Part shown: positions 33,335 through 53,366 of the stretch, piece by piece
How positions within the stretch are numbered: position 1 is the stretch's first letter
How the letters are laid out: the number at the start of each line of letters is the position of its first letter
Assembly: GCA_944371605.1 (NCBI GenBank)
Contig: CALVXU010000024.1
Span: 4,382 to 68,381, forward strand
Length of the DNA: 64,000 nucleotides
Reading direction: 5' to 3'
Source of the DNA: an uncultured Bacilli bacterium
GTDB lineage: Bacteria; Bacillota_I; Bacilli_A; RFN20; CAG-288
Notes under the pieces: generated by a model
Seen by the model: the letters and a program-made list of their open reading frames with translations, nothing else
Told to the model about the DNA's origin: nothing
The model's database searches: none
Position numbers and translations under genes: made by a program

Positions 33335-34447
33335 ATGGAAAAAGCAGATCAAATCAATCCGAAATATTTAGATGTTTCACCGATTACTAAAGGCAAGAGA
33401 ATGCTCATTTATCTCGCTGACCTTTTCTTGAATTTTATCATTGCTGTAACCTTGTTTGCAGCGATGGTTTATCCTATAGCTAGGGTTATTGCTTCATCTG
33501 ATGATATAGATCAAGATAGAAATATAAATGAGCAGCAGAGAATCGATATTCTTTATAGCAACGATTTATTAGATTATGATGAAAATGCTGATACTAAATA
33601 CAATATTAACGAGTCTTTGCAATATAGCGCAAATCTCTATTTATTAGGCTTTTTAAACGAATCGTTTAAACCGGATTATTTCAACACGTTTTATGTGGAG
33701 TATTTAGAAAATGATTATCAATACTTGAAAGATATTATTCATAAACAGGATAATTACGGTTTTTTTGATTATGAGCAAGACAGATTAGTTTTAGCGGCTG
33801 AATATAAAGATAAATTTCTCCCGTTGCTCGATGACAACGATCAATTATCAAATACAGCTCAGGCGGACTATGATTATTTTATAAATAGTTTTTTTGCTCA
33901 TATCTATGCTGACTTGTTAAATGAAATGCTGACATCTAGACTCATCACTGAGGCGTCACCATTATATGAGTATCGCATATTAGACTCTGAGAACAAGCGG
34001 ATGACAAATGCTGAAAATATGGTAGCTGTTTATTCGACATATGTTTCTTATCTTTTGTCATCAATAATCTATTTTCTTATCATTCCATTAATTTCTAGTC
34101 ATGGCAAAACAATCGCTATGATGGCTATGAGAATCGAAAGAATCGGTGACAACAATTTTCAGGTGCTATCACGTAAAGAACGAATTATTAATTCTTTATA
34201 TCAATTAGTATTTGCACTGCCTTTGATCATGTTTATCCCTGTTATGTATATACCTATCACCACGATTTTTAGCCTCCCGCATTTGTTATATCTCTCTTTG
34301 ATTTCAACAGGTTTTGTCTTAATATCTTTCGTGTTTATTTTCATCAATAGACTCCATCGCAGTTTAATTGATTTTCTATCGAGAACCATTTTGATTTCAA
34401 AAGATATTTTAGAGCAGATTTATACTATTAAAGGATACATGAAATAA
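33335..34447 (+). CDS. RDD-family membrane protein with large external loop
   Basis: KRMLIYLADLFL, GKTIAMMAMRIERI, HRSLIDFLSRT pattern. Confidence 0.7.
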   Translation: MEKADQINPKYLDVSPITKGKRMLIYLADLFLNFIIAVTLFAAMVYPIARVIASSDDIDQDRNINEQQRIDILYSNDLLDYDENADTKYNINESLQYSANLYLLGFLNESFKPDYFNTFYVEYLENDYQYLKDIIHKQDNYGFFDYEQDRLVLAAEYKDKFLPLLDDNDQLSNTAQADYDYFINSFFAHIYADLLNEMLTSRLITEASPLYEYRILDSENKRMTNAENMVAVYSTYVSYLLSSIIYFLIIPLISSHGKTIAMMAMRIERIGDNNFQVLSRKERIINSLYQLVFALPLIMFIPVMYIPITTIFSLPHLLYLSLISTGFVLISFVFIFINRLHRSLIDFLSRTILISKDILEQIYTIKGYMK

Positions 34448-35511
34448 TGTCAGAGATGAGTGTTTATGATGTTAACCAAAATCGTGAAAAGCAAGTTGGT
34501 TTACATATACAATATGTGCAAGCTAGAACTTATAAAAAGGTCTTTGCTAAAATCATAGACCTCTTATTGCTAGCGGTATTAGGGATTTTATTTTTTGTAG
34601 CTACTAGAGCTACGGTTCAGGCTTTTCCAGGATATCAAAAGATTCAAGAGCGAGTAAACACGACATTAGAGGATAGTGGCATCTATATCAGAGATGGAGG
34701 AGAGTTAGTTGATGCGGTGGATTATTATAATAATAAGAAAGACGATTTATCCTCTAGCGCTTTGATGAATGAAATAGAAGGTGTTATCGATAAATTCTAT
34801 TCTTATGTTGATTCATTAGTAGATGAAGGCGAAATAGAAGAAACAGATTATCAAAAAATGTTATCTGATTATGACGATTTTAGAGAACAGATAACTTATA
34901 GTGAAACACATCTTTTCATAAGAGATGGTGATATTTTGATTAAAAATCCTGATTTTAGTCGTGGAGAAGAGACATACACAATTTATGTTGAAAATGTTTA
35001 TATTCCATTTATTGATTCGCATTTGAGAGGATATTTACTCAATTATTTTCCACAATATTTGAAAGATACTGATTTTATGAGCAAGATGATTTTATTAGTC
35101 GAATTGCCCATCGCTGTTTTTTTATCAGCAATATTAGTTTATCTAGTTCCTCCGTTAATCTTCAGGAGAAATAGACAAACAATAGGTCGTTTGATTTATA
35201 AAATCGGGTTAGTAAACAATGACTTATTCGCTGTTCCTTTAAAAAAGTTTTTAGTATATGTTTCCATCGTTATTGTTTTAGAAATCGCTTTATCATTTTT
35301 GACGTTAGCTATTCCGCTCATCATATCGATATCCATGATGGCTTTTTCCAAGAGAAAACAAGATTTTGCCGAGTATATGGTGCAAATACAACAAGTGGAT
35401 ATCTCAAAAGAGAAAATATATCGAAACAAAGAGGAATTAGAAGTGGCTCATTTGAAGCTGAATCGCACTCCTGTTCAGTTTAAAAACATCACATTTGATG
35501 AAAATCAGTAA
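34447..35511 (+). CDS. RDD-family membrane protein with large external loop (paralog)
   Basis: KKVFAKIIDLLL, RQTIGRLIYKIGLV, KQDFAEYM; TAATG overlap with the previous gene. Confidence 0.7.
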   Translation: MSEMSVYDVNQNREKQVGLHIQYVQARTYKKVFAKIIDLLLLAVLGILFFVATRATVQAFPGYQKIQERVNTTLEDSGIYIRDGGELVDAVDYYNNKKDDLSSSALMNEIEGVIDKFYSYVDSLVDEGEIEETDYQKMLSDYDDFREQITYSETHLFIRDGDILIKNPDFSRGEETYTIYVENVYIPFIDSHLRGYLLNYFPQYLKDTDFMSKMILLVELPIAVFLSAILVYLVPPLIFRRNRQTIGRLIYKIGLVNNDLFAVPLKKFLVYVSIVIVLEIALSFLTLAIPLIISISMMAFSKRKQDFAEYMVQIQQVDISKEKIYRNKEELEVAHLKLNRTPVQFKNITFDENQ

Positions 35512-35610: not shown

Positions 35611-35730
35611 CTGTAAAAAGTCCGTAAAATCAGGTTTTAAAGATTTATAAAAAACGTTATAATATTACGAGAAATACCTTCTTCATCTCAGCGAGTCTTA
35701 TAGTTATCTTTATTTATGAGGGATTAGTCA

Positions 35731-37257
35731 ATGAAACGAAAAAAGAACGTGTTGTCCTCAATTCGTCTACTGTTAGTTTCTCTGCTGCTGATTTGTTTTT
35801 TACCATTTGGTCTTTCATTTTCCGACTCTGGTGTTCGTATTGAAACTGGAAGTGCGATAAGAAAGGCTAATGAATCTGATTCTGATGTTAACGGCCCTCA
35901 AGACAATGCGTTGCCATTGACCGATTTAGATTCTAATTTTATGGCTACGATCACAAACCGTTCTTTTACAGATACTTGCCAGTCTTTTTCTTTTACTTTT
36001 TCTACATCAAGCCCTACAGTCGACTATACTTTAGGATTTTATGGCAGCGATGAATTAGATTTGCCATTGACACTCCAATATGATGTGACTCTTGAAAATG
36101 GATCTATTGAAACTCGTTTAATAGAACTCGCTAATACTAACAAAAATGGTAATTATCAACCATTAGGTGTCAGCTTTTCTAATAGAATGCCTTTGACAGT
36201 CGATATTTTATTAAATCCTGGTGAGGCTGTAGTTCAAGACAGCCTACTCTTTTTTAATATATTCACGATTGCAAGAAAAGATTCTACTCCTGGTTCTCCT
36301 TATATTCCGGGAGAGCAGCCATATTATTTCGATGAATTCGTCTATGATTATTTTGCTGAAACCAATGTCGATTTAAATCAATATCTCGATATTCAATTAG
36401 ACAATATCTCGACATTTTTAGGGTATGCTTCAATCACTGCTACTGTTTTTAATAATAGTTCTCCTTTATATGAGGAACAAATGATTTCTTCTCCAGGCTT
36501 TACCCAAAATCAAAACCGCATAGAAAGTGGAGAATTCAGATATGATTATCAATTTACAAATTTGATAAATTCTTATTTCATTTTCTATTATGATGATGGA
36601 AGACAATTAAATGTCTCTCTTTTGAATGATTCTTTAAACACTTCTTTTAGAATAAATGATGGAAAGAGTACTATTCATTTATTAGTTCAAAATATTGATT
36701 TTAATGGATTGACTGGGATCTCTCTTTGTGCGACTGATTTCAGCATCGGCATCGTGAATAAAGAGACTTTGAAAGACATAACAAATGCTACTTTTTCTAT
36801 TCGTCTCGGCTCACTTTATTTTAATCTTCCTGAAGGTCAATCAATCTCATATATCAACATCGGTATGATTTTATTGATCACATTATTATGTTTCTCAGCT
36901 GTTTATCTATCAGGAATTGTCGGAGCATATTTCTTCTTCAAAAACAAATATAAAAATGATGAATTCAAGAGAATCAATACTAAAGAATTCTTTAAAATAA
37001 ATATCTTAGGCTATTTGGCTGTCATTGTTTTATTGATGGATATTATGATAATTTGCTTTAGAGCATGTCTATTAGGAAGCGAATTAGCTATGTTTAATCC
37101 ATTAGATAATTATATTGTCTGCTTATCGATCATCGGAATTCTTTTCATCGGATACTTTATTAAACATTTTGTTACTAATATCAAAGCTTATCTAGAGAGA
37201 AAAGCTATAAACAAGTTACAACTTGATAAAGATAAAGCAGATGATGGCACAAATTAG
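35731..37257 (+). CDS. Uncharacterised membrane protein (signal/TM, ~340-aa external beta-rich domain, 3 C-terminal TMs)
   Basis: 508-aa ORF, hydropathy pattern; first gene of the ABC operon. Confidence 0.8.
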   Translation: MKRKKNVLSSIRLLLVSLLLICFLPFGLSFSDSGVRIETGSAIRKANESDSDVNGPQDNALPLTDLDSNFMATITNRSFTDTCQSFSFTFSTSSPTVDYTLGFYGSDELDLPLTLQYDVTLENGSIETRLIELANTNKNGNYQPLGVSFSNRMPLTVDILLNPGEAVVQDSLLFFNIFTIARKDSTPGSPYIPGEQPYYFDEFVYDYFAETNVDLNQYLDIQLDNISTFLGYASITATVFNNSSPLYEEQMISSPGFTQNQNRIESGEFRYDYQFTNLINSYFIFYYDDGRQLNVSLLNDSLNTSFRINDGKSTIHLLVQNIDFNGLTGISLCATDFSIGIVNKETLKDITNATFSIRLGSLYFNLPEGQSISYINIGMILLITLLCFSAVYLSGIVGAYFFFKNKYKNDEFKRINTKEFFKINILGYLAVIVLLMDIMIICFRACLLGSELAMFNPLDNYIVCLSIIGILFIGYFIKHFVTNIKAYLERKAINKLQLDKDKADDGTN

Positions 37258-37270
37258 GAGATAGGAAATT

Positions 37271-39190
37271 ATGGAAATTAAACTTAAGAATCTCACCAAA
37301 ATCTTCCCAGGCAACCCCAAGAAAAACATCAGGGATACTATCGCTGTAAATAATTTGGATTTTGAAGTTCCAGATGGAAAATTAGTGGGATTATTAGGCC
37401 CTTCTGGCTGTGGTAAATCCACCACTTTATACATGATTTCCGGCTTATTGAAGCCGACATCTGGTGAAGTTTGGTTTGGAGATCAAGAGGTCACTAATCT
37501 CCCGCCAGAAAAAAGAGGTATCGGTTTAGTTTTTCAAAACTATGCTTTATATCCTCATATGACCATTTATAAAAATATCGAATTTCCTCTTACTAATTTG
37601 AAGGTTGAAGTTCCTTTAGTCGCTTTTTATAAATATGAAATACATTATACATATACAATGCAGCCTGATGACGATGTCAAAGGTATAACCTATGCTATCA
37701 ATCAACTCATCAGTCGTATCGGATTGAAGAAAAAGACATGTCATGTCTCTTCTTGTGAAGTGGTGGATGGCAGATTGAATCTTGTTATTCTTTTAGATGG
37801 TGTTTCACCAGAAAACAAAGATGTTTTCTTAGAGAACGCTAAAAAGATTGTCGCTTTCGATACTGTTGAGATTCAAACTGATCCGGTTTCAGACGCATTA
37901 TTTGATGCTAAAATCAGAGCGGATGTTGCTAGAGATTCAAATCCTGATGAAATAACCACTATCAATTTTATCGGGCATTTACCAGACACGTTCACAACTG
38001 ATAAGATCGATGAATATATCAAGACTGAAACAGCTGTCATGTCTAAATTTGGGCATGTAGAATCTATAACTATTTTTAAATCCAAGACTTGTTATGAGAT
38101 TGTCGCTCGTATCAAGAACGTAAAAACAATAACATTAGATCAATTTAAAGCTGAAGTTCAAGAAGCTATTGAATTTACGCAAGTCAGCTTTGGTATCAGC
38201 GATGTTTCAAGCAAGAGTTTTGAAAAAGATATAAAACTCAAGTTGAAACAGAAAAAATATATTTATTCTGATTTAAAACTTTATTACGAAAATGAAAAGC
38301 TTCATTTCTTCATCATCATTAAGAAAACTCCTCGTAATATCATCGATGAGGCTATTGCCTTTATGACGGAGAATTTTGGTTTATCTAACGTCAGTGCTGA
38401 TATCAAAACAGCAATCACTCATCGTAAGCTCACCAAAGAAGAGAGAAAAGAAATTGTTTATGAAACAGCAAAATTAGTGCAAGTTGAAGAATATTTAGAG
38501 AGAAAGCCTTCTCAATTATCAGGCGGTCAACAACAGCGTGTCGCTATCGCTAGAGCGCTTGTTAAAAAACCTAAAGTCTTACTATTAGATGAACCTTTAT
38601 CCAATCTCGATGCCCGTCTAAGATTACAGACCAGAGAAGAGATTAAGAGAATTCAAAGAGACACAGGCATCACAACTGTTTTCGTCACTCATGATCAAGA
38701 AGAAGCTATGTCTATCTCTGATAAAATCGTTGTTATGAAATTAGGCGAAGAGCAGCAGATTGATACTCCGCAAAATGTTTATAATTCACCTGCTAATTTA
38801 TTCGTCGCTCAATTCTTAGGAACACCACCTATCAATGTTTATAAAGGTCGCGTAGAAAACAAAGTTTTGTATTTAGGTTCTGAGCCTGTTTATAAGTTGG
38901 AAAAAGATATCGCTGATCAACCAGTCTATATCGCTATTCGTCCAGAAGGCATGAATGTCTATCAAGAAAAGCAAGGTGAATATGGTTTCCATGCTGATGT
39001 AGAGATGATTCAAGTTCTTGGTAGAGATCTTTTCATTGTCGCTAAGAATGAAAATTGCACTAAGCCAACATTTAAGGCTATCATCTCTGCTGAACAGCAG
39101 GTCGCTCATGGTAGTATTTTCATCACTCTTAAGCCGAACAAATTTTTCATCTTTGATGAAAAGAATGAGCAGAGAATCTATTTGGATTGA
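37271..39190 (+). CDS. CUT1/MalK-UgpC-type ABC ATPase with ~274-aa insertion
   Basis: GPSGCGKST, VFQNYALYPHM, LSGGQQQR, LLLDEPLSNLDA, VTHDQEEA, C-terminal TOBE-like region. Confidence 0.95.
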   Translation: MEIKLKNLTKIFPGNPKKNIRDTIAVNNLDFEVPDGKLVGLLGPSGCGKSTTLYMISGLLKPTSGEVWFGDQEVTNLPPEKRGIGLVFQNYALYPHMTIYKNIEFPLTNLKVEVPLVAFYKYEIHYTYTMQPDDDVKGITYAINQLISRIGLKKKTCHVSSCEVVDGRLNLVILLDGVSPENKDVFLENAKKIVAFDTVEIQTDPVSDALFDAKIRADVARDSNPDEITTINFIGHLPDTFTTDKIDEYIKTETAVMSKFGHVESITIFKSKTCYEIVARIKNVKTITLDQFKAEVQEAIEFTQVSFGISDVSSKSFEKDIKLKLKQKKYIYSDLKLYYENEKLHFFIIIKKTPRNIIDEAIAFMTENFGLSNVSADIKTAITHRKLTKEERKEIVYETAKLVQVEEYLERKPSQLSGGQQQRVAIARALVKKPKVLLLDEPLSNLDARLRLQTREEIKRIQRDTGITTVFVTHDQEEAMSISDKIVVMKLGEEQQIDTPQNVYNSPANLFVAQFLGTPPINVYKGRVENKVLYLGSEPVYKLEKDIADQPVYIAIRPEGMNVYQEKQGEYGFHADVEMIQVLGRDLFIVAKNENCTKPTFKAIISAEQQVAHGSIFITLKPNKFFIFDEKNEQRIYLD

Positions 39191-39200
39191 GGAATAGAAC

Positions 39201-40271
39201 ATGCAAGAGCCAATGCTTCGAGAGCAAAAAAGCTTAACAGCGGTAAATGATTTCTTTGAAGAACGACCTCAATTTGAGGAAAGTTTTAATCAAGAGAGCA
39301 ATACCATTATCAGGCTTGTCGCTCCTATCAAGGAGAACGCTAAGCCTTATAAGGTGACCGGTATACAGGACACAGCTTCTAACAACAATTGGAAAGCTTG
39401 GTTATATTTAGGGCCCGTCCTCATTTTATTAGTTGTTTTCTTACTTTATCCATTGATCAATACTATCTGCATCTCTTTCATGGACAATTATAGTCAAATC
39501 ACTGGACATTCAGATGGATTTACTTTGAATAACTTCGGAGTTATTTTTGGTATCACTGAAACTGCCTGTGGTGGTATTGAGCAGAACTTTTCTCAATATG
39601 CTATCCCTAATACTTTCATTATTGTTGTATTGACTGTTCCTATTTCAACCTTGATCGCTCTATTGATTTCTGTAGCTTTAAATTCATTAAAGTGGTTTAA
39701 AAAATTCTTACAGACTGTTTTCTTCTTGCCATATGTCACTAATGCTATCGCTATCGGTATGGTCTTCTCAGTCATGTTCGATAACCATGGTATCATCAAC
39801 ACCATTTTCCACACTGATACGACATGGATTGTCGGAGCTGATAGGGCTACTGCTATGGTGCCTCTTTGCATTTATATCGTTTGGTCATCGATTCCATTTA
39901 AAATTTTAGTTTTCTTATCTGGTTTACAAGGTATCGATGCTCAGTATTATAATGCCGCTAAAATCGATGGTGCTTCTAAAGCCAAGACGCTTTGGAAAAT
40001 CACAGTTCCGTTGATGTCACCTCAAATTCTTTATATCGTTGTCACTTCTTTCATAGGTGCTTTTAAGGAATATTCTTCCATCGTCGGTTTATTCAATGGA
40101 CCGGGTACGATCAACGGTTCTCATAATATGTATACAATTGTTTACTATATTTATGATAACCTCGCTACGCATACTTCTTATGCGGCTGCAGCTGCTGTCT
40201 TCTTATTTGCGGTCATCCTAGTCTTCACAGCTTTACAATTATTCGTTTCTAAGAAGAGAGTCTATTATTGA
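39201..40271 (+). CDS. CUT1 ABC permease (MalF/UgpA-like)
   Basis: FFLPYVTN, GLQGIDAQYYNAAKIDGAS EAA-type loop, 6 TMs. Confidence 0.93.
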   Translation: MQEPMLREQKSLTAVNDFFEERPQFEESFNQESNTIIRLVAPIKENAKPYKVTGIQDTASNNNWKAWLYLGPVLILLVVFLLYPLINTICISFMDNYSQITGHSDGFTLNNFGVIFGITETACGGIEQNFSQYAIPNTFIIVVLTVPISTLIALLISVALNSLKWFKKFLQTVFFLPYVTNAIAIGMVFSVMFDNHGIINTIFHTDTTWIVGADRATAMVPLCIYIVWSSIPFKILVFLSGLQGIDAQYYNAAKIDGASKAKTLWKITVPLMSPQILYIVVTSFIGAFKEYSSIVGLFNGPGTINGSHNMYTIVYYIYDNLATHTSYAAAAAVFLFAVILVFTALQLFVSKKRVYY

Positions 40272-41272
40272 TGGAGGGGAAAAGAATGTCAGAAACTACA
40301 AATTCTTTAACTATGAAAACCTATATTGATTTCTCCGAAGTCAAAATAAATAACAATATAACTTTATCATTAGCTGATTCGGGTCAAACTGTTGAAGCTA
40401 TGAGAAAAAGAGAGAAAGTCACATCTATCGTTTCTACGATTATTCTTTATGCTGTCGTTCTTTTCTTAGCTCTTCTTATGATTTTTCCATTCTATTGGAT
40501 GATCATCACTTCTTTGAAGAGTAAAGTCGAAATCGATTATATTGAACAAACTCTTTATCCTTCTGTCATCATGTGGTCGAACTATGTATATGTCTTCCAA
40601 ACATTTGACTTTTTACAATATATGGGAAATACGATCATCGTCGCAATCTTTTCCACTATCGGTACGCTTATAACTACTATTATCGCTGCTTTCGCCTTTG
40701 CTAGATTGCAATTTAAAGGACGTGAAGCTATCTTCTTAATCTTCTTGATGACGATGATGATTCCAGGTGAAATGATGGTTATTTCTAACTATATAACAGT
40801 CGCCAGTTTCGGTTGGATAGGAAATGGACAGACGAGAGTTGAAGCTTATGCTGCTATGATTGTTCCTTTCTGGATTTCTGTTTTCTATATTTATTTGTTA
40901 AGACAAAACTTCAAACAGATCCCTAATGAATTATATTTAGCGGCTAAAGTGGATGGTAAGTCAGATTGGTCATTTTTATGGAAAGTGATGGTACCATTAG
41001 CTATGCCGACATTGATTTCTATCACCATCTTAAAATTCATGGGAACTTGGAACTCTTATGTTTGGCCAAACTTAGTCACTAATGATGTTGACTTCCGCTT
41101 GATATCTAATGGTTTGAGAGGTTCAGCCTTCACCGATGCTGATACCGGTCAAACTTCATATGGTTATCAAATGGCAGCTACTGTTCTCGTCACTGTTCCT
41201 CTCTTCTTATTATTCATCTTCTTTAGAAAGTATATTATGAGAGGTGTTGGACGTGCAGGTATCAAAGGTTAA
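40268..41272 (+). CDS. CUT1 ABC permease (MalG/UgpE-like)
   Basis: FPFYWMIITSLK, FKQIPNELYLAAKVDG, WNSYVWP; true start may be the ATG a few codons downstream (GGAGG SD). Confidence 0.93.
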   Translation: MMEGKRMSETTNSLTMKTYIDFSEVKINNNITLSLADSGQTVEAMRKREKVTSIVSTIILYAVVLFLALLMIFPFYWMIITSLKSKVEIDYIEQTLYPSVIMWSNYVYVFQTFDFLQYMGNTIIVAIFSTIGTLITTIIAAFAFARLQFKGREAIFLIFLMTMMIPGEMMVISNYITVASFGWIGNGQTRVEAYAAMIVPFWISVFYIYLLRQNFKQIPNELYLAAKVDGKSDWSFLWKVMVPLAMPTLISITILKFMGTWNSYVWPNLVTNDVDFRLISNGLRGSAFTDADTGQTSYGYQMAATVLVTVPLFLLFIFFRKYIMRGVGRAGIKG

Positions 41273-41337
41273 GGTTTGATTTCTCATATCGAGAATTAAA
41301 CATATATTGAAAATGATTTCAAAAAGGAGGAAATCAG

Positions 41338-42822
41338 ATGAAAAATCTACTCAAAGTGTTGCCTCTTCTTTCTGTTTTAGTTCTTGCTGGATGTGATACT
41401 TCTTCTAGTGATAATCACACAGCTAACCCAGGTGAAGATTATGTGAGTGTAATCGATACTCCGGTCACAATTGACATTTGGACGACTATCGGTTCTGGTA
41501 ATCAAACAGCTTTTGATACTATGATTGATCGTGTTAAACAGCTCGAGCCGAATATCACCATCAATAACACCTATCAAAATAGTATGGGTTATGATGAACT
41601 TCATACTGCTATCGTCAATGGTTTCCCAGCTGATAACTATCCTGATTTAGCATATTGCTATCCTGATCACGTCGCTGACTATATCAACGCTGGTAAAGCT
41701 GTCGATTTAGACCAATTTATCAACGACCCTATCGTTGGATTATCTGAAGAAGATAAAGCTGACTATTTTGCTAAATTTATGGCTGAAGGTCAAGAATATT
41801 CGATTCCTGGCACTTATTCTGTTCCTTTTGCAAAATCCACAGAAGCTTTATATTATAGCGGTGCTTTGCTCGGTATTGATTTGAGTTCTATCGATTCTAC
41901 TATCAATGCAGGTAAACCTTTAAATGAAGCTTATTTCAATAATTTATCTTGGTCGGAATTGTTCGATAAACTTTGCCCAGCTCTCATCGAATATAATGAA
42001 CAATTAGCAAATGATGGAAAGGATGAAACAACTCCTCTTATCGATTTAGATTCTAACACTAACGCTGGTATCGTCGGTTATGACTCAGATGATAATCTTT
42101 TCATCACTTTAGCTCAACAATATGGTTATGAATATACTGGAATCGATGAAACAGGTAAGGGAAAAATCCTTTTCAATAATGATGGAATGAAAGAATTGTT
42201 GATGAAATTCCATAATTGGGCTAATAAGCGTTATATCGTTTCTCAAGGTACCACCGGTTCTTATACCTCGAACCTTTTCACTGCTAACCAGTGTTTATTC
42301 AGTGTATCTTCCACTGCTGGTGTTACCTATTTATGGAATCAAAATAATCCTAGAGTTGAAGTCGCTCCAATCCCTCATGCTGAAACTGAATCTGAGACTT
42401 ATAATGCTCAAATCTCTCAAGGACCTTCTTTCTGCGTCTTAGATCATGGCAGTGCTGAAAGACGTAAAGCGGCTTGGGTCGTCTATAAATTATTGACTGA
42501 TACTGTTAATAATACCGAATGGTCTATCAACACTGGTTATATGGGTATCAGACAATCTTTCTATGAGACTGATCAATATAAAGCTGCCTCTAGATTACCT
42601 TCTAGTGATGAAACTGAAGCAGCTTTATTAGCTAAGAACTGGCAATATTTACCTACTGTTAGTGATAGAGTTTATACTTCACCTGTTTTCAAAGGATCTG
42701 CAACTGTCAGAGATGTAGCTGGCGGTTTGATGACCACTGCTCTCACCAGAGGTGAATTGACTGAAGAAAAGCTTGAAGAAGCTTTTGTCAAAGCTGAAAA
42801 TGAGGCGAAGAACGCTCTCTAA
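41338..42822 (+). CDS. Extracellular solute-binding lipoprotein 1 (SBP family 1-like)
   Basis: Lipobox LAGC; YPDLAYCYPDHVADY, VPFAKSTEALYY, TGYMGIRQS; AGGAGG SD. Confidence 0.9.
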   Translation: MKNLLKVLPLLSVLVLAGCDTSSSDNHTANPGEDYVSVIDTPVTIDIWTTIGSGNQTAFDTMIDRVKQLEPNITINNTYQNSMGYDELHTAIVNGFPADNYPDLAYCYPDHVADYINAGKAVDLDQFINDPIVGLSEEDKADYFAKFMAEGQEYSIPGTYSVPFAKSTEALYYSGALLGIDLSSIDSTINAGKPLNEAYFNNLSWSELFDKLCPALIEYNEQLANDGKDETTPLIDLDSNTNAGIVGYDSDDNLFITLAQQYGYEYTGIDETGKGKILFNNDGMKELLMKFHNWANKRYIVSQGTTGSYTSNLFTANQCLFSVSSTAGVTYLWNQNNPRVEVAPIPHAETESETYNAQISQGPSFCVLDHGSAERRKAAWVVYKLLTDTVNNTEWSINTGYMGIRQSFYETDQYKAASRLPSSDETEAALLAKNWQYLPTVSDRVYTSPVFKGSATVRDVAGGLMTTALTRGELTEEKLEEAFVKAENEAKNAL

Positions 42823-42873
42823 AATTTGTTGATTGGAAGTAAGCCCATCTAAAGATATAGGAGGATATAGCTT

Positions 42874-44286
42874 ATGAAACATGCAAAATTATTATCAATG
42901 GTAGCTTTTCTACCTGTTTTAGGTGGGCTAGCTTCTTGTACACGTACTGTTGATAACACCATCTATTTTTGGCACACTTGTGGTCAAACAGTCGCCGCTG
43001 AATTACAAAATAGAATTGATGAATTCGAACAATTAGTTTTAAAAAATGAAGGCAAAGAGATCAACATTAAACTGAGTTATCGCGGAAGTTATGATGATAT
43101 TTTAAAAGCCGTCAGAACCGCTTTTTCTGCTGGCAAGCAGCCGACATTAGCTATCGCTTATCCTGACCATGTCGCTGAATATTTAGCTAGCGAGAATACT
43201 CCTGGTCAATATGTTGTAGATTTGTCTAAATACATCAATGATCCTGAGATCGGTTTTGGTAAGGAAGCTTGGATTGGTGATGGTGATACATCTGATTTTG
43301 TAGAAGCTTTCTATGAGGAAGGTTCTTCTTATGGTAGAGAAGGTATTTATTCTTTGCCTTTGATGAAGTCTACTGAAGTCATGTATTACAACAAGAGCAT
43401 TGTTTTACCACTTGTCACTGAATATAAGCCAGAATTAGATACTACCCAAAAAGCTGAAGATTGGATCGCTAATCTTTCTTGGGATGAGTTCATGGACTTC
43501 TGCTATTACATCAAAGATAATTATAATCCAGGTGGTGTTTCAGATTTTTGGCCAGCGTTTTATGATTCGGATTCTAATATGTATATCACTGCTTCCATGC
43601 AAGATAATATTCCTTTCTTAGGCTATGATTCTGAAAATAATGGAGAAGTGTTATTCAACAATCCTCAAGCTAAAGAGATGGTGCAACAATTTAAAACTTG
43701 GTATGATGATGGTCTTTTCAGCACCAAAGGTGTGACTGGCAAATATGGATCTAATTATTTTACAAACATAAGTTGTTTGTTCGATATCGGTTCTTCAGGT
43801 GGAGCTGGTTATAACTATCCTGCTGGTGGCAGTTTTGAGGTTGGAATTTGCAAAGTACCAGCATTTAATAAAGATAATCGCTTATATGTCACACAAGGTT
43901 TGACCGCTACTGTTTTAAAGGCCGGTGATGATTATGATGGCGAAAAAGCCTTATATGGATATAAATTTTTGAAATATCTAACTTCCACAGATGTCAACAC
44001 AGAATTATGTATCAATGGTTCGGAGGGTTATATCCCTGTGAGACAGTCTTGTTATGAGACAGATTTATTTAAAGATTTTTCTAGCAATACTAGCCTGATG
44101 GTAGGGCAAGTCGCTAACATCGTTGCTAGTGAGATACAAGGGAATTATTTCAATACTCCTTGCTTCAAAGGATCTGCATATGCTAGAGATGCTGTCGGCG
44201 GTATTTTATCGCAAGTCTTCACAAATAATCGTTCTATCGATGAAGCTTTTACTTTTGCTGAAAACGAGACTAAGAATCAGATGTAG
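42874..44286 (+). CDS. Extracellular solute-binding lipoprotein 2 (paralog)
   Basis: Lipobox LASC; PTLAIAYPDHVAEY, LPLMKSTEVMYY, GYIPVRQS. Confidence 0.9.
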   Translation: MKHAKLLSMVAFLPVLGGLASCTRTVDNTIYFWHTCGQTVAAELQNRIDEFEQLVLKNEGKEINIKLSYRGSYDDILKAVRTAFSAGKQPTLAIAYPDHVAEYLASENTPGQYVVDLSKYINDPEIGFGKEAWIGDGDTSDFVEAFYEEGSSYGREGIYSLPLMKSTEVMYYNKSIVLPLVTEYKPELDTTQKAEDWIANLSWDEFMDFCYYIKDNYNPGGVSDFWPAFYDSDSNMYITASMQDNIPFLGYDSENNGEVLFNNPQAKEMVQQFKTWYDDGLFSTKGVTGKYGSNYFTNISCLFDIGSSGGAGYNYPAGGSFEVGICKVPAFNKDNRLYVTQGLTATVLKAGDDYDGEKALYGYKFLKYLTSTDVNTELCINGSEGYIPVRQSCYETDLFKDFSSNTSLMVGQVANIVASEIQGNYFNTPCFKGSAYARDAVGGILSQVFTNNRSIDEAFTFAENETKNQM

Positions 44287-44299
44287 TGAGGTATAAAAA

Positions 44300-45694
44300 A
44301 TGAAAAAAAATATCTTGAGCTCCTTATTGATAATCCCGGTGATTGCTGTATCCATCACCACTAGTTGCACCAAGACAGGCGATGAACTTCCTGAGTGGGT
44401 TGACTATATAAATGATCCTTTAGTCAAGTTGAATCTCGACTATAATAACCATACCTTTGTCAAAGATGGTATCGAAGAAGTATCTTTAGCGACTGCTATC
44501 GATGGGGATACCGCTCATTTTAGAACAGCTGATAACGATTTGATCAAAGCTCGTTATTATGGTATTGACACTCCCGAGAGCACGGGTAAAGTTCAACCTT
44601 TTGGTAGAGGTGCTTCTAATTTCAATAAAGAAAAATTGCATGAGGCTGATGAGCACGGGACAATTGTCATCACCAGTGTCAGTGTCGATGAATATAAGGC
44701 TCCTAGTTTTGACTCTACTGGTGAGCGTTATGTTTCTTTGATTTGGATCAATACTGAAAAAGAACATGCTTCTTCTTCTGAATTGACACTTTTAAATTTA
44801 TGGATTGTTCAAGAAGGTTGGTCTGATGTCAAAAATGTCAATGATTTACCTCAATATCAAAATATCTTCTTTGCTGCTAATGAACAAGCTAGAATTTATA
44901 AAAAGAATCTCTATTCTGGAGTTGATGACCCATTATTCAATTATGGTGGTTATGAAGAAGCCATCATCCCAGATATCAGTAAAGAAATTATAGCATCCAT
45001 GCAAGATGAAACTCATGTCAATGAGTTTGATGGTAGAAAAGTCAGATTTAATGGAACTGTGGCTGGTTGGTCCAATAATATTCTTTATTTAACGACTTAT
45101 GATGAAGAAACAGACGAAAATTACGGCGTCAACTTCTTCACTGGCATGGGTGGAATTGATGATAGATATATTCAGCCGGGTGCTTATTTGGAAGTCTATG
45201 GATTATGTCAAGATGATGAAAACTTTGGTTTCCAACTCACCGATGGCAATTTCAATATTTATTCATCTGCTGATTCAGCGGCTCAAGTTGTTATCGAAGC
45301 GAGTGAAAACACCGCCTATCCGCTTCATGTCAATGAATTCATTCCTAGTGAATTAGGAGCAGCTAATTATGATGTGCTCAATTGTGCCGTCTCTTTGACT
45401 GAAGAGGTTGTTGTCAGCGATTGTTATATCAACAACAATACTTACACCTTATATTTAGAAGATACGGAAGGTAAACCTTTAGATTTTGATATCTATATTC
45501 CTTTTACTTATTATTTGGAACCTGGTAATTACAGTACACGTGTTGTTGATGAAAGTGTTATGATCGGTAAAAAATTCAACCTTTCTCATGGTGTTTACAC
45601 ATTCCATAAGACCACTTCCGGTAAAATCAATTGGCAGATCACTATCTGTAATAACAAAGATTTCTTAGTCGTAAATGAGGAAAATGAGGGCTAA
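44300..45694 (+). CDS. Thermonuclease (SNase-like) lipoprotein with C-terminal OB-fold-like region
   Basis: Lipobox TTSC; IDGDT, RYYGIDTPE, QPFGRGAS, DSTGER, LNLWIVQEGWS, EQAR...NLY: full SNase catalytic and metal-binding motif set. Confidence 0.92.
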   Translation: MKKNILSSLLIIPVIAVSITTSCTKTGDELPEWVDYINDPLVKLNLDYNNHTFVKDGIEEVSLATAIDGDTAHFRTADNDLIKARYYGIDTPESTGKVQPFGRGASNFNKEKLHEADEHGTIVITSVSVDEYKAPSFDSTGERYVSLIWINTEKEHASSSELTLLNLWIVQEGWSDVKNVNDLPQYQNIFFAANEQARIYKKNLYSGVDDPLFNYGGYEEAIIPDISKEIIASMQDETHVNEFDGRKVRFNGTVAGWSNNILYLTTYDEETDENYGVNFFTGMGGIDDRYIQPGAYLEVYGLCQDDENFGFQLTDGNFNIYSSADSAAQVVIEASENTAYPLHVNEFIPSELGAANYDVLNCAVSLTEEVVVSDCYINNNTYTLYLEDTEGKPLDFDIYIPFTYYLEPGNYSTRVVDESVMIGKKFNLSHGVYTFHKTTSGKINWQITICNNKDFLVVNEENEG

Positions 45695-45699
45695 AAATT

Positions 45700-46173
45700 A
45701 TGTATTGTTGTCATTGCGGATACGATTTAAATATCGATAAGGTGGAAAAGAGCGTAGATTCTCATACTTTATTTGAAGAGGCTAATATTGATACTGATGT
45801 GAAGTATGTCTGTCCGCGCTGCGGTCATTTGATTCATAAAAATGTCGATGAACAAGAAATTAAAACTTTATCTGCAGCTAGCCATGCTGAGATTCAAAGA
45901 GGTCGCAATTTCTTTGCTAACGGCATGTCTCTTAATCTTGTCGGTGCCATCATTCTTATACTAGCTATCATTTTTTTAGTATTATCACATAAACCAGCTA
46001 ATAATTTTGCTTTGGTCACCGATTGTCCAGAATTCTATGTTTCTGTCGTCGCCTTTGTTATCAGTGGGATTCTTATTGGAGTTGGGTTGGTACTGACTAT
46101 TATTGGTGTTCTTAAGAAAACCAAGTATCAGCAACTTCTTAAGGATATACAAAATCAAGTTTTCTTCCAGTAG
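45700..46173 (+). CDS. Zinc-ribbon + 2-TM membrane protein
   Basis: CCHCG and CPRCG pairs followed by two hydrophobic helices. Confidence 0.8.
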   Translation: MYCCHCGYDLNIDKVEKSVDSHTLFEEANIDTDVKYVCPRCGHLIHKNVDEQEIKTLSAASHAEIQRGRNFFANGMSLNLVGAIILILAIIFLVLSHKPANNFALVTDCPEFYVSVVAFVISGILIGVGLVLTIIGVLKKTKYQQLLKDIQNQVFFQ

Positions 46174-46216
46174 TGTTGTTTTTTTACATGAGATATCAAA
46201 AAAAGGAGGATAAATC

Positions 46217-49200
46217 ATGAAAAAGAAGTTCTTGTTGTCTCTCGTTGGTCTCTTATCTTTAGTCGGTATGGTTGGTTGTACCGAAACCTCTAGTCCAACC
46301 TCATCAATTGTTGAACCTATTGAATTAACTTCACTGTCAATCGCAAATAAAGAAAAATTACAAGAAAGATGGTTAACTACTGATGATTATCGTACAATCG
46401 AACTCACCAGTAATCCAGCAATTTTACCTCCTCAGGCACTTCAATCTGGTCTATTAACAGTTACTTCTTCAGATTCTACGATCATCGCTGTCACCGGTTT
46501 AACAATCACTCCTCAAAAAGCTGGTAAAGCTACTATCACTGTTAAATATGGCGACAAATCTGACTCAGTTGAAATAACTGTTTATGATGATATCACTATG
46601 ATTCCTACTAATGATGTCATCGCTTTATCTGAAGCAGATAAAACAATAACTTTTGAAATCAGTTCAACCAGTAATAGAAATAGTTTGACTGATTATGAAT
46701 GGTCTTCTAGTGATAATTCTATAGCTACTGTTAAAGATGGCGTCGTCACTGGTCTTAGCGCAGGCGAAGTTACAATCAAAGTCATAGATAAGGCCTTTGA
46801 GGGAAACGTAGCTGAATACAATATCACTGTTTTGGCTGATAAAGAAGTCATCACTCCTATCAAGGAAGTTGATTCTAATAAGATAAAAGCTGCCTTTACT
46901 GTTGATGGTGAAGTAGTCGCTAAAACTACAAAGGGATTCTTACTTTCTGATGGTGAAGCTGCTATTTATGTCTATTTGAACACTGCTCCTACATATGCTA
47001 TCGGTGATCATGTTAAAGTAAGAAATGTTGAATATGAAACAGGCAAATTTTCTAGCAGCACTTATAACGGGTTGCCTCAATTTACTGCTGATGCTGAAGT
47101 TGTGTTATTGAGCTCTGAATTTGATGGAACTATTCCTGAAGCGAAAGATTTAGATGTTTCTACTGCTAATTCATTTGGTGGAACCATCACTACTGCTTCT
47201 GTTCAAAAATACAAATGGTCGACAGTCACATCTGAATTAGATGATTATACAACTATCAATTTAGATGGTTCTAGCATGGTTATGGAACCTTCTTATATGC
47301 CAGACGAATTTAAGATTAGCCCATTTGGTTATTATGAAGTTGAGGCTTATTTCGGTGGCTATTCTTCTAGTCATGGTTATGCTGCTATGTATATCACCAA
47401 AGTCACTCAAAAAGATGTGACCGAAAACCTTTTATCTGTCAGCAGCACTGATGTGAACGTTTATGTTGAAAATTCAACAGATATTAATATCGTAGGGCTA
47501 GTTCCTGATGACTCTAAAGATAAAGTAGTTGTCAAATCTAATGATGAAAAGATTGCGACTATCGCTGCTGATGAAAAAGAAGAAACTGTTTATACCATCA
47601 CTGGTGTTGCTGAAGGTAATACAACTATCACTGTCACTTTAGGCACTGTTACTAAGACTATTAATGTAACTGTTTCTAAGAAGCTTGATGTGACTGCTAT
47701 TAAGGATATTGTGCCTCCATCAGATTATAATCAAACTGTTGGTGCCAAAATTAGGGCTGTCGTTGTCGCAGCAGATTCATATAATAGTGTTATTGTAGAT
47801 GATGGTACTGGTGCTATATTTATCGATAACAGAAATGATGGCAATCAAGATGGTGGAATAGTAGATGAAATGGAAGTTGGAAAGTATTATGAAATCACTG
47901 GAGAAGTGAATAGTAATTTTGGAACTCCATCGTATAAATCTGTTACTAGCGTTGAGAAACTTTCTGAAAAAGCACCAACTACTCAAACTGCTACTGAATT
48001 GACTGCCGAAGCTGCTGCTGCTTTTGCTGCTAAAGGCACTTATAAGACCACTGATCTTAAACCTTATACATTCACTGGTACTGGACATGTTGATGGCAAA
48101 TATAAGCAAATACAATTGGGTAGCACTACTATTCAGTTGATGAATTTGCCAAATAGTTTTAAAGTTGAGGAAGGAAAATCATATAAAGTAAGTGCATATT
48201 TATATGGATACAATTCGAGTTATTCATATATTCAAGCAATTGCAACTTCTGTTGTAGAGGATACTACAGGGGGAGGAGAAGAGCCTGAACCAGAGCCCAC
48301 ACCTCTCCCAACGCCCACTGAAACAACTATTGCTGAGTTGATTGCCAAAGATACTACTGATAACACAAATTTGTATAAAGTGTCTGGTATATTAGAAGAT
48401 AAGAAGAATACTGACAGATATGGAAATGGTTATTTGACTGATCCAGAAACTGGCGATAGTATTAAGATTTATGGATCTACTACCTCTGCTGTTGAAGATG
48501 TATTCAGCAATGTTGGTGGTGCATTAGATTTTGAAAACCCTGAAACAGCCGTTGAAGAATTAGCAGATATCAATAATGGCGACTATATCACTATGACCGT
48601 CAAATATGAATGCTATAACGGAACAGATGAAATCATGGGTGTTATTACTTCACATGAAACTTCAGATAGAAAGTATAGTGTTAATATTGCACCTACTGAA
48701 AATGGTTCAGTTACATCTGATAAAGAAGAATATGCTTATGGTGAAACTGTATCTTTAGCAATTAGTCCAGCAGAAAATTATCGTATTGGTAAAGTTACCG
48801 TAACAAATGCATGGGGAGGTGCAGTGACTACAACTATCGGCGAAAATAACACTTATACTTTTGCTGCTACTGCTATAAATAATGTTACTGTCACTTTTGA
48901 AAGCTCTACTGCACAAGCTTCTAATTATGTAATTAAATCTATAGATTTAGGCTTGGGTGCTTATCCTGATGAAGAACAAAGTAAAGATTTATTAGTTTCA
49001 GGCACAACAATAACATTTAAGTATTATAATTTAGGCGATTATGGTAATGGCATCCAATCAAAGCAGGACGGAGTTTTAAGAAATACAACTGCATTGCCGT
49101 TAGCTATTGATAGCATTGAATTCCATTATAATTCTAAGCAAGTTAGTACTAAATCAGGTATTGCTGTTACATTTGGCACTGAGGAAATTTCTTCTAAAGG

Positions 49201-49348
49201 TTCTACAACTAATGTTCAATTTGCTACTGGTGAAACAGTCGATATTGTTGATTGTGATGTTAGTGATGCTACATTTTTCCGTATAGATCATATTGAAAGT
49301 GGTGCTTTCTACTTTGATTCTATTGTAATTAATTTTGTTGTTGCTTAA
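46217..49348 (+). CDS. Large lipoprotein with Big_2 domains, OB-fold-like domains, Pro-rich linker and an InlB-B-like repeat
   Basis: Lipobox MVGC; WSSSDNSIATVKDGVVTGLSAGEVTI; three G-x-V...D-G-x-x-I...G-D-x-V OB patterns; EPEPEPTPLPTP linker. Confidence 0.85.
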   Translation: MKKKFLLSLVGLLSLVGMVGCTETSSPTSSIVEPIELTSLSIANKEKLQERWLTTDDYRTIELTSNPAILPPQALQSGLLTVTSSDSTIIAVTGLTITPQKAGKATITVKYGDKSDSVEITVYDDITMIPTNDVIALSEADKTITFEISSTSNRNSLTDYEWSSSDNSIATVKDGVVTGLSAGEVTIKVIDKAFEGNVAEYNITVLADKEVITPIKEVDSNKIKAAFTVDGEVVAKTTKGFLLSDGEAAIYVYLNTAPTYAIGDHVKVRNVEYETGKFSSSTYNGLPQFTADAEVVLLSSEFDGTIPEAKDLDVSTANSFGGTITTASVQKYKWSTVTSELDDYTTINLDGSSMVMEPSYMPDEFKISPFGYYEVEAYFGGYSSSHGYAAMYITKVTQKDVTENLLSVSSTDVNVYVENSTDINIVGLVPDDSKDKVVVKSNDEKIATIAADEKEETVYTITGVAEGNTTITVTLGTVTKTINVTVSKKLDVTAIKDIVPPSDYNQTVGAKIRAVVVAADSYNSVIVDDGTGAIFIDNRNDGNQDGGIVDEMEVGKYYEITGEVNSNFGTPSYKSVTSVEKLSEKAPTTQTATELTAEAAAAFAAKGTYKTTDLKPYTFTGTGHVDGKYKQIQLGSTTIQLMNLPNSFKVEEGKSYKVSAYLYGYNSSYSYIQAIATSVVEDTTGGGEEPEPEPTPLPTPTETTIAELIAKDTTDNTNLYKVSGILEDKKNTDRYGNGYLTDPETGDSIKIYGSTTSAVEDVFSNVGGALDFENPETAVEELADINNGDYITMTVKYECYNGTDEIMGVITSHETSDRKYSVNIAPTENGSVTSDKEEYAYGETVSLAISPAENYRIGKVTVTNAWGGAVTTTIGENNTYTFAATAINNVTVTFESSTAQASNYVIKSIDLGLGAYPDEEQSKDLLVSGTTITFKYYNLGDYGNGIQSKQDGVLRNTTALPLAIDSIEFHYNSKQVSTKSGIAVTFGTEEISSKGSTTNVQFATGETVDIVDCDVSDATFFRIDHIESGAFYFDSIVINFVVA

Positions 49349-49370: not shown

Positions 49371-49402
49371 GTGTCCTGCCGTAAAGGCAGGACACTTCTT
49401 TT
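49371..49402 (+). terminator. Strong intrinsic terminator ending the ABC/nuclease operon
   Basis: Perfect 10-bp stem GTGTCCTGCC / GGCAGGACAC followed by TTCTTTT. Confidence 0.9.
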
Positions 49403-49432: not shown

Positions 49433-49448
49433 ATTTAAGCACCTTTTT

Positions 49449-49536
49449 GGAGTGATACTCAAGTTGGTGAAGAGGAGTCCCTGCTAAGGACTTAGGGGGA
49501 GCAATCCCCGCGAGAGTTCAAATCTCTCTCACTCCG
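49449..49536 (+). tRNA. tRNA-Ser(GCT), CCA not encoded
   Basis: Acceptor GGAGTGA/TCACTCC + G discriminator; anticodon arm AGTCC-CTGCTAA-GGACT; long variable arm GGGGA-GCAA-TCCCC; T arm GAGAG-TTCAAAT-CTCTC. Confidence 0.97.
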
Positions 49537-49552
49537 TATTTGACTGAAATAT

Positions 49553-49574
49553 GCCCTAATTCTAGGGCTTTTTT
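49553..49574 (+). terminator. Terminator after the tRNA
   Basis: GCCCTA / TAGGGC stem followed by T6. Confidence 0.75.
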
Positions 49575-51482: not shown

Positions 51483-51728
51483 ATAAATGTTGATCATCAA
51501 TTACAATTGGCTGGATTTTTTAAAGACCGATTATTTTATACTCAAGGAGATTATGGATTATTTCAATGCGCGACCACTTGTCACCATAAAACTTATGATA
51601 GTAAAGAAATGAATTCAAAAATGCATTCTATATCTCTATCAATAAATAATTCTTATGTTCCAGAAAAAATTAAGTCTAAGTCTTTTATGATTGCAGAGGA
51701 CTTAGCAAAAGTGATTGAAACTATGTGA
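51483..51728 (+). pseudogene. Relic of a class M sirtuin (SirTM)
   Basis: NVDHQLQLAGFFKDRLFYTQGDYGLFQCATTCHHKTYD core joined to a C-terminal SYVPEKIKSKSFMIAEDL segment; N-terminus and middle missing. Confidence 0.75.
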
Positions 51729-51841
51729 TTTTTTTGATTTATAAATGTTTCGAAATGATTAAAATAACAGACATTGATTTAAATGTTCCAACAATATGTT
51801 ATTTCTCTTATATAATATCTATACGATGGAGAGTGACTGTT

Positions 51842-53360: not shown

Positions 53361-53366
53361 TCAAAT

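Follow-up and report, generated by a model that had tools for sequence, protein, structure and literature searches.

What does a bacterium gain from a lipid-anchored nuclease that is encoded in one row with an importer of the sugar-transporter type? The question is raised by nine consecutive genes, here numbered g1 to g9, in a stretch of 64,000 nucleotides (nt) from an uncultured Bacilli bacterium (assembly GCA_944371605.1, contig CALVXU010000024.1, positions 4,382 to 68,381; hereafter the window), which an initial annotation had described as a nucleic-acid foraging operon. The nucleotide supply of wall-less or genome-reduced bacteria is usually explained by nucleases together with nucleoside or nucleobase transporters, and for the ATP-binding cassette (ABC) importer suspected of carrying nucleotides in mycoplasmas the substrate has, to our knowledge, never been shown. 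We consider it probable that the nine genes form a surface system that turns extracellular DNA or RNA into phosphorylated fragments and imports them. Gene content, catalytic and phosphate-site residues, folds, synteny and missing pathway genes are observed directly, and it is from these that we infer the substrate.

Linkage of nuclease and importer

The transporter core has the composition of a CUT1-type ABC importer (TC 3.A.1.1), with a MalK/UgpC-type ATPase (g2), two permeases (g3 and g4) and two cluster-B substrate-binding proteins (SBPs; g5 and g6). The family matches, ABC_tran, BPD_transp_1 twice and SBP_bac_8 twice, bear out the CUT1 ATPase, the two permeases and the two paralogous binding lipoproteins of the initial annotation. 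The best NCBIfam matches of these parts are UgpC, UgpA, UgpE, UgpB, MalK, MalG, GlcU and GlcV, none of which reaches the equivalog cut-off. On g2, ABC_tran falls in two pieces (residues 26-152 and from ~362) around an insert of about 250 amino acids (aa; residues ~113-362, nt 37607-38356), for which the searches returned no relatives outside its own ATPase family (22 matches in one search and 15 among 1.84 billion representatives, all from that family).

To follow these genes across relatives, we gathered loci by similarity to the nuclease g7 from related genomes and a public genome collection and mapped the nine window proteins onto them by tblastn. The 125 loci with a staphylococcal-type nuclease (SNase) match reduced to 121 unique ones, 99 of them informative in having at least 8.6 kb upstream; the loci are thus chosen by their nuclease, and the relatives are not independent. 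In 94 of the 99, the ATPase, two permeases and at least one SBP lie directly upstream of the SNase gene on the same strand, and the five loci that lack an upstream transporter are short, low-scoring SNase open reading frames (ORFs). Ten other families of the class contributed 17 informative loci, and every one of these has an insert-less five-gene cassette in the same order, and the SNase-lipoprotein profile matches 237 of 399 sampled genomes of the class (E <= 1e-10). Among same-genus loci the permease g3 is 71-94% identical.

Two forms of the cassette can be told apart by the ATPase insert, which is present in 62 of the 94 cassette loci and absent from 32. The membrane protein g1 accompanies the insert in 62/62 loci and is found in 0/32 of the insert-less ones; two SBPs are encoded in 62/62 and 10/32, respectively. 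Where at least 3 kb of downstream sequence is available, the insert-type loci carry g8 in 54 cases out of 54 (4/32 for insert-less loci), a g9-like gene in 46/54 and all nine genes in 46/54. Co-conservation, which the initial annotation had proposed as a check, therefore holds for the nuclease and transporter unit across the class and for the full set within most of the insert-type loci. The nine-gene form marks one clade, and because the loci were picked by their nuclease and the relatives are non-independent, the pairing of g1 with the insert may reflect a single ancestral event. One locus (L040:15079-20060) has a second, insert-less cassette of ATPase, two permeases and one SBP a few kb downstream of its nine-gene operon.

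The binding lipoproteins and their probable phosphate site

The two SBPs, which share 31% identity (E 3e-62), both have a signal sequence ending in Cys. We compared profiles of the g6 type (from 23 sequences) and the g5 type (from 18) with all chains of the PDB. Both find the 7c0x/7c0f family first (best 4.6e-31 for g6, 3.8e-29 for g5), followed by UgpB structures (9.4e-29 to 1.9e-26 and 7.5e-27) and after these mycobacterial UgpB, with maltose-type binders at 1.6e-09 for g6 and sugar binders at 3e-13 or weaker for g5. Entries 7C0F-7C19 we take to be a dinucleotide (U3G)-binding protein of Thermus thermophilus. In the available portions of PMC12718374, which cites Chandravanshi et al. 2021, the U3G-binding protein of that organism is described as a close relative of UgpB, and two Tyr and two Ser that coordinate phosphate are reported as kept in UgpB and in the binders of glycerophosphocholine (GPC) and U3G, not in glucose binders; a Trp pair that clamps the glycerol moiety in UgpB is given there as specific to binders of glycerol-3-phosphate (G3P) and glycerol-1-phosphate.

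We aligned 14 SBPs with E. coli UgpB, using the E. coli precursor numbering. Y65, S144, S270, Y346 and R397 are invariant in 14/14; of these, Y65/Y346 and S144/S270 are equated with Tyr64/342 and Ser143/266 of PMC12718374 by position, not through a direct alignment to 9LFF. At the position of W192 in UgpB, 14/14 have Ser, Asp, Glu or Ala, and at that of W195, 13/14 have Phe or Tyr and one has Ile; by their position, W192 and W195 would be the glycerol-clamping pair. The proteins are thus like the UgpB branch at large (E. coli UgpB, the GPC-binding UgpB of M. tuberculosis and the U3G binder of T. thermophilus) in keeping the phosphate Tyr/Ser and the Arg, and unlike UgpB in having lost the Trp pair, in being lipoproteins ~60-90 aa longer with extra segments, and in an identity of 17-24% to E. 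coli UgpB. They are not UgpB proper: the NCBIfam UgpB model gives them 25-49 bits against a cut-off of 411, and the Trp pair is absent from SBPs of the g5 and g6 types.

As far as sequence and profile comparison can place them, both SBPs belong to the phosphate-ester-binding UgpB branch of CUT1 and are not sugar binders. The retention of the phosphate residues together with the loss of the Trp pair argues that the ligand is very probably a phosphate ester, neither a neutral sugar nor G3P held in the classical UgpB manner. In a FastTree phylogeny rooted on UgpB and read without support values, the position-1 and position-2 SBPs of the nine-gene clade form two sister clades, which suggests a single old duplication that has been retained since, as specialisation for different fragments would predict. 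The initial proposal of an importer for nucleotides or oligonucleotides, not sugar, thus stands in so far as the SBPs fall with phosphate-ester binders and not with the sugar type; the imported substrate itself is a matter of reasoning from context.

Nuclease and genome background

That context starts with g7. The residues D68 G69 D70 T71, R85, T91 P92 E93 and R143 are invariant in 14 relatives, placing g7 in the SNase family and agreeing with the intact catalytic motifs attributed to it at the outset; the roles of the DGDT, Arg, D/N-T-P-E and Arg residues are presumably those of S. aureus nuclease. g7 is the sole PF00565 match in the genome. Staphylococcal nuclease releases 3'-phosphorylated mono-, di- and oligonucleotides. 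Because the linkage to the SNase is fixed, the products of such enzymes are 3'-phosphorylated and no gene for the glycerophosphodiesterase GDPD was found in the genome, the nuclease products would be the most likely ligands of g5 and g6.

The host seems to be a small-genome organism unable to make nucleotides de novo. In a genome 89.87% complete, purH, purF and pyrB were not found by searches that were positive in 13-14 of 14 control genomes, and for pyrE only sub-threshold phosphoribosyltransferase matches appeared; the absence of de novo purine and pyrimidine synthesis, suggested at the outset as something to check, is supported to this extent. Five DHHA1 matches occur in the genome, and two of the ORFs, of 333 and 361 aa, have the size of NrnA and could degrade imported short oligonucleotides. 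The genome's relatives are metagenome-assembled genomes (MAGs) from gut and rumen (Candidatus Enterosoma, Ca. Onthovivens, Ca. Caccosoma, 'Bacilli bacterium') that probably fall in the GTDB order RF39, and at least half of the operon's sampled words recur in five DNA runs from two studies, two runs of one study being chicken gut metagenome. An affiliation of the host with Izemoplasma is not borne out by these animal-gut relatives.

Proposed function and its alternatives

In the mechanism that we envisage, the lipid-anchored g7 would cut nucleic acid into 3'-phosphorylated mono-, di- and oligonucleotides while the lipoprotein g9 would hold the polymer at the surface through its oligonucleotide/oligosaccharide-binding (OB) folds. 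g5 and g6 would bind the products through the conserved Tyr/Ser/Arg phosphate site and hand them to the two permeases (g3, g4), with g2 supplying the energy as the ATPase; inside the cell, nucleotides would be formed from the fragments by the NrnA-size DHH/DHHA1 proteins together with salvage enzymes.

Several observations weigh against this proposal. We know of no CUT1 system for which uptake of nucleotides or oligonucleotides has been shown by experiment, and at the family level the transporter parts are closest to the glycerol-3-phosphate system. In the structure search 7c0f is named only 'Sugar ABC transporter, periplasmic sugar-binding protein', and its identity as the dinucleotide binder is presumed. 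The Ig-like and carbohydrate-binding-module (CBM)-like domains of g9 could bind glycans, and the presence of an OB fold does not by itself establish a function. Among its nine genes the locus has no nucleotidase, phosphatase, phosphohydrolase or Pst component, and a weaker terminator-like hairpin lies within g1 (36224-36245). A Bmp-type binding protein is encoded elsewhere in the genome; the Bmp family binds nucleosides, so that the operon need not be the sole salvage route, and nucleoside salvage may not depend on it.

Among the alternatives, we regard as unlikely an import of non-nucleotide organophosphates such as glycerophosphodiesters or glycerol phosphate, with the nuclease serving phosphate release, biofilm remodelling or escape from DNA traps. 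The best NCBIfam matches, UgpC (3.3e-105), UgpA, UgpE and UgpB, speak for such a role, as do the nearly equal scores of UgpB structures and the 7c0x family and the fact that the phosphate-site residues are common to G3P and GPC binders. However, the NCBIfam Ugp models all stay below cut-off, both UgpB Trp are replaced in all 14 SBPs, a GDPD phosphodiesterase was not found in the genome, and the adjacency of the SNase in 94/99 loci would go unexplained.

A harvest of phosphorus, in which the cell would take in nucleic-acid fragments, or process them at its surface, to obtain phosphate instead of nucleotides for salvage, overlaps with the proposal of nucleic-acid import, and we think it quite unlikely as the main purpose of the operon. 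The SBPs probably recognise the phosphate group itself, and the genome encodes the Bmp-type protein, of a family that serves nucleoside import. For DNA degraders, extracellular DNA is also reported to supply phosphorus (PMC8289736, in the portions available). Against a phosphorus harvest stand the lack of phosphatase, nucleotidase and Pst genes in the locus and the searched de novo purine and pyrimidine genes that were not found, which imply that nucleotides themselves are needed. An ordinary CUT1 oligosaccharide importer, with g9 as a glycan-binding protein and the nuclease as an inconsequential neighbour, would suit the matches to MalK, MalG, GlcU and GlcV, the annotation of one homologue as 'multiple sugar transport system ATP-binding protein' and the CBM-like sandwich and Big_2 domains of g9, but is highly improbable given that the scores of sugar-binding SBPs lie 16 to 22 orders of magnitude behind those of phosphate-ester binders, that the phosphate Tyr/Ser invariant here are reported absent in glucose binders (PMC12718374, in the portions available), that none of the nine genes has a glycoside hydrolase match and that the SNase linkage holds across ten other families.

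Beyond the uptake of nuclease products by this operon, we offer tentatively, as a possibility that may well prove too wide, that the ATPase-permease-permease-SBP-SNase cassette, spread through many small-genome relatives in the class, serves specifically to import nucleotides, di- and oligonucleotides with a 3' phosphate, which would be a substrate class as yet undemonstrated for CUT1, and that the nine-gene form is a true nucleic-acid utilisation locus with an OB-fold capture lipoprotein, two SBPs specialised for distinct fragments and, in g1, a new membrane subunit working with the orphan insert of the ATPase. If so, many genes of gut Bacilli now annotated as 'sugar' or 'glycerol-3-phosphate' transporters would have to be reinterpreted as encoding nucleotide importers, which matters for cross-feeding on DNA or RNA from the host or from microbes in the animal gut and for the cultivation of uncultured lineages. 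The binding proteins of a cassette related to the mycoplasma importer, and much more widespread, can now be placed in the phosphate-ester branch of CUT1, and the residues that likely hold the phosphate can be named, so that the question of the substrate becomes directly testable with two soluble proteins.

Comparison with known systems

In mycoplasmas, P80-SNase-ABC loci are described as co-transcribed and have been proposed to import nucleic-acid precursors (PMC3585158, PMC9740415, in the portions available). These P80/P68 loci (MAG_5030-5070, MPN133-136, mhp379) and the window share a lipoprotein SNase, an SBP-like lipoprotein, an ATPase and two BPD-type permeases, all co-oriented, in organisms that depend on nucleotide salvage. 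They differ in gene order, which is SBP-SNase-ATPase-permease-permease in mycoplasmas and ATPase-permease-permease-SBP-SBP-SNase in the window, in the absence of g1, g8 and g9 from mycoplasmas and in the binding protein: mycoplasmas use the Lipoprotein_X/Lipoprotein_10 (P68) family, and g5 and g6 fall below that family's cut-off (PF03305, 19.6 bits for g5 against 25; NF045826, 32.6 bits for g5 and 31.8 for g6 against 200).

Loci of the mycoplasma kind also occur within the class. lipo_P68 (NF045826) is present in 21/399 of its genomes, all of them TGA-recoded, with TGA inside the match, and in 0 of the window's own order. Three such code-4 loci (L149, L151, L152) combine a P68 lipoprotein, a lipoprotein of 312-321 aa with DGDT...IDTLE motifs, an ATPase of 650-738 aa and two permeases; as in the window, the SNase-like gene is adjacent to and co-oriented with the ATPase and the two permeases. 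L150 is a fourth ABC-bearing P68 locus that is without the small lipoprotein. Across L149-L152, identity to g2 amounts to 43-60% over the ATPase core, and the permeases share 24-33% of their residues with g3 and g4. Between a P68 protein and the SBP profile there is a weak alignment that takes in the KST and GST motifs (E 2.9e-4), and the hhalign comparison of the SNase profile with the small lipoprotein of a code-4 locus is not significant (E 0.12), the motifs lining up.

The ATPases of the code-4 loci align to g2 at residues 22-109 and from 396, that is, only on the flanks of the g2 insert, and so carry an insert at the same site. Theirs is Lys/Glu-rich and ~300-370 aa long (e.g. L150:4373-6445), and hhalign gives a probability of 0.1% for its relation to the window insert; there were either two independent insertions at one site of the ABC domain or one insertion that was later replaced. 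The initial annotation had counted the insert among additions to the mycoplasma module, a view that this same-site, sequence-unrelated counterpart removes. The strict pairing of g1 with the orphan insert and the unrelated insert of the mycoplasma type suggest that ABC ATPases have at this position a regulatory or mechanical site yet to be explored. Complex prediction for the g2 insert (residues 105-372) with the membrane part of g1 (368-508) returned a score of 0.00 (mark 0.32) with controls that were not folded, so that the score speaks neither for nor against binding.

Since both the binding-protein family and the gene order differ, the operon, on the evidence of its genes, does not belong to the mycoplasma module but is related to it distantly or represents a parallel form. 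Nor is it the direct extension of the minimal mycoplasma module that was first supposed: it elaborates instead a five- to six-gene insert-less cassette that is widespread in non-mycoplasma relatives.

A second precedent is provided by the DNA-degradation clusters of Izemoplasma, which the available portions of the reports describe as comprising thermonuclease, other nucleases, phosphohydrolases, ABC and phosphate transporters and liken to polysaccharide utilisation loci (PULs; PMC8397711, PMC8289736), that of strain zrk13 including a thermonuclease and ABC transporters (PMC8397711). Like the window operon, these clusters co-localise genes for extracellular nucleases and transporters and are read as serving the use of extracellular DNA. 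They have in addition EddB, other DNases and RNases, phosphohydrolases and Pst-type transporters, none of which is in the window operon with its single nuclease. Conversely, neither g1 or g8 nor an OB-fold lipoprotein nor a CUT1/UgpB-type importer that has two SBPs is mentioned for Izemoplasma in these portions of text, although the ABC transporters may overlap. The idea of a PUL-like locus for DNA or RNA, of which the initial annotation knew no description, is hence already in print for Izemoplasma with respect to nuclease and ABC clusters and the PUL comparison, as far as these portions go (PMC8397711, PMC8289736).

Mycoplasma SNase-ABC loci and Izemoplasma DNA-degradation loci are thus known, and the operon extends an idea so far proposed mainly for mycoplasmas. 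For this cassette outside mycoplasmas and Izemoplasma, we found no description in the literature, the search covering article text. An SNase domain combined with OB folds at the cell surface is also found in Bacillus subtilis YhcR, a wall-anchored sugar-nonspecific nuclease with OB folds. Unlike YhcR, the window has its OB folds mainly on the separate g9, its nuclease is tied to an ABC importer and it has no fused nucleotidase domain.

Accessory parts

g1, g8 and the ATPase insert are accessory parts, clade-specific or system-associated. For g1, neither Pfam nor NCBIfam gave a match and the ESM Atlas gave none that was usable. The AlphaFold2 (AF2) model and hydropathy indicate an N-terminal transmembrane (TM) helix, two beta-sandwich ectodomains (~residues 60-376) and three long C-terminal TM helices; a cytoplasmic loop, KNKYKNDEF, and the tail DDGT are conserved. 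This order, TM1, large ectodomain, TM2-4, fits an FtsX/MacB-type (type VII) ABC permease, a candidate that gained no support, there being no Pfam match and no MacB or FtsX chain among the fold matches listed, which barely cover the ectodomain. The best row of the fold comparison is a coiled coil (PcsB, Z 8.8), and Foldseek with the whole models of g1 and g9 gave only generic matches to Ig chains, S-layer proteins, arrestin-like folds and single-chain antibody fragments (scFv).

The small protein g8 is a zinc-ribbon protein with two TM segments, as had been noted at the outset: all of 24 relatives keep C3, C6, C38, C41 and H62, and the protein has two hydrophobic segments. The name 'Phage holin family protein', an automatic ESM Atlas cluster name that comes without any Pfam family and from clusters that are probably g8's own family, was not adopted. 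Distant g8-like proteins (28-32% identity, four Cys kept) are encoded near the insert-less cassettes of L102, L105, L106 and L111, upstream of the ATPase or downstream of the g9-like gene, and tie g8, unlike g1, to the system beyond the nine-gene clade. In many nine-gene loci (L053-L055, L058-L060, L062, L064, L066, L067, L069, L071, L084, L086, L089, L091, L096, L137), g8 lies ~1.1-1.4 kb further from g7 than in the window. In L058, L059, L066 and L137 the extra space is filled by another SNase-like sequence, which matches g7 residues 32-215 only weakly (26-29% identity), giving a ten-gene variant of the nine genes plus a second SNase-like gene, with two nucleases.

At least two OB folds can be recognised in the predicted structure of g9, in keeping with its first description as a multi-OB-fold lipoprotein of 1043 aa. 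They lie at ~490-590 and 700-815, with a further OB-like stretch at 227-298, and in VIA-align they reach Z 9.2-10.8 against OB domains of RPA, PolC, DnaE1 and tRNA synthetases. Residues 491-586 align with the RPA domain 3e0e at Z 10.8 (82 aa, root-mean-square deviation 2.5), residues 700-812 with the DnaE1 OB domain 7pu7 at Z 9.2, and residues 700-815 with OB domains of DnaE1, CST and AsnRS at Z 9.1-9.2; the VIA-align rows listed leave residues 210-400 uncovered. PF01336 gives no match in g9 itself and 26.3-27.3 bits (cut-off 27) in three of the five homologues scanned. The protein also contains Big_2 Ig domains at ~124-207 and 401-490, a B-repeat-like domain and, at 900-1043, a CBM-like beta-sandwich (8x8h, Z 10.6 for 900-1042; CBM36, Z 8.9). 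Wide conservation is confined to residues 1-122; beyond them the protein is modular, with homologues of ~400 to 1230 aa. The C-terminal domain of g7 resembles residues 209-289 of g9, the first OB-like domain (hhalign E 3.9e-5, probability 70%). When pieces of g9, the C-terminal part of g7, the ectodomain of g1 and the ATPase insert were compared separately with Pfam, RMI2 (E 0.16) and CBM_4_9 (E 0.046) came out best, and no match was usable.

At window 1-12890, large putative surface proteins carry Big_2, Flg_new_2 (InlB B-repeat) and BspA-type LRR_5 domains, types that recur in g9 and its homologues.

Operon layout and flanking genes

The nine ORFs (Table 1) are all on the + strand at 35731-49348, with intergenic gaps of 13, 10, -4, 65, 51, 13, 5 and 43 nt. 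The initial description, nine co-oriented genes spaced by -4 to 65 nt, preceded by a TATAAT and followed by a single strong terminator, is confirmed. Its observation that the operon encodes no glycoside hydrolase also holds, none of the nine proteins matching a glycoside hydrolase family. Judged from this spacing, the nine genes are likely one transcription unit. A 219-nt spacer separates the upstream gene from g1, and Shine-Dalgarno-like motifs precede eight of the nine starts, the exception being g4, which starts with TTG, overlaps g3 by 4 nt and has an ATG one codon further on. Over the region, promoter-like sites (61 against 56.3+-6.7 in shuffles) and terminator-like sites (9 against 7.1+-2.4) occur at chance density, so the signals fit one unit and are no proof of it. 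TGA is the stop codon of g2 and g3, which indicates the standard bacterial code.

Table 1. Coordinates of the nine genes and of the putative signals that flank them (window positions)
Feature	Position	Strand	Description
Promoter-like site TTTAAA-16-TATAAT	35636-35663	+	10/12 matches, best on + strand; TATAAT at 35658-35663; 67 nt before g1
g1	35731-37257	+	508-aa membrane protein; no known family; AF2 pLDDT 80.5, pTM 0.71
g2	37271-39190	+	UgpC/MalK-type ABC ATPase, 639 aa; ABC_tran split; best NCBIfam match UgpC 3.3e-105
g3	39201-40271	+	ABC permease; BPD_transp_1; best match UgpA
g4	40268-41272	+	ABC permease; BPD_transp_1; best match UgpE
g5	41338-42822	+	Substrate-binding lipoprotein, position-1 paralogue; SBP_bac_8 1.4e-25; lipobox LAGC; UgpB-related CUT1 branch
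g6	42874-44286	+	Substrate-binding lipoprotein, g5 paralogue; SBP_bac_8; UgpB-related CUT1 branch
g7	44300-45694	+	Surface SNase lipoprotein; PF00565 34.4 bits (cut-off 21), NucI 1.1e-12; nuclease domain ~residues 60-210
g8	45700-46173	+	157 aa; N-terminal four-Cys zinc ribbon CxxC...CPxC; two TM segments, 70-102 and 108-142
g9	46217-49348	+	Modular surface lipoprotein, 1043 aa; AF2 pLDDT 87.2
Intrinsic-terminator-like hairpin + T tail	49371-49395	+	10-pair stem, 7 G-C; strongest of region; 22 nt past g9 stop

The flanking genes are of housekeeping, surface-protein and capsule type, none evidently tied to the operon. Right after it lies a tRNA-Ser(GCT) gene (49448-49537, ARAGORN) with its own terminator-like hairpin (49553-49568); Rfam at gathering thresholds gave no match in the window, this tRNA included. 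Just upstream of the operon, at 32030-35511 (+), three packed genes encode a SIR2_2-domain protein (434 aa), a family-less protein of 370 aa and one of 354 aa with a weak RDD match, a cluster that may be of defence type. Before them, at 26960-31949 (-), two adjoining proteins (890 and 771 aa) each combine an ABC ATPase domain at the N terminus with a long C-terminal part that matches no family. Further downstream, a capsule or exopolysaccharide cluster (51725-62790; Caps_synth twice, Polysacc_synt, PS_pyruv_trans, DUF4422 twice, GT2 twice and EpsG) has a G+C content of 0.28-0.29, lower than the 0.33-0.37 of the operon.

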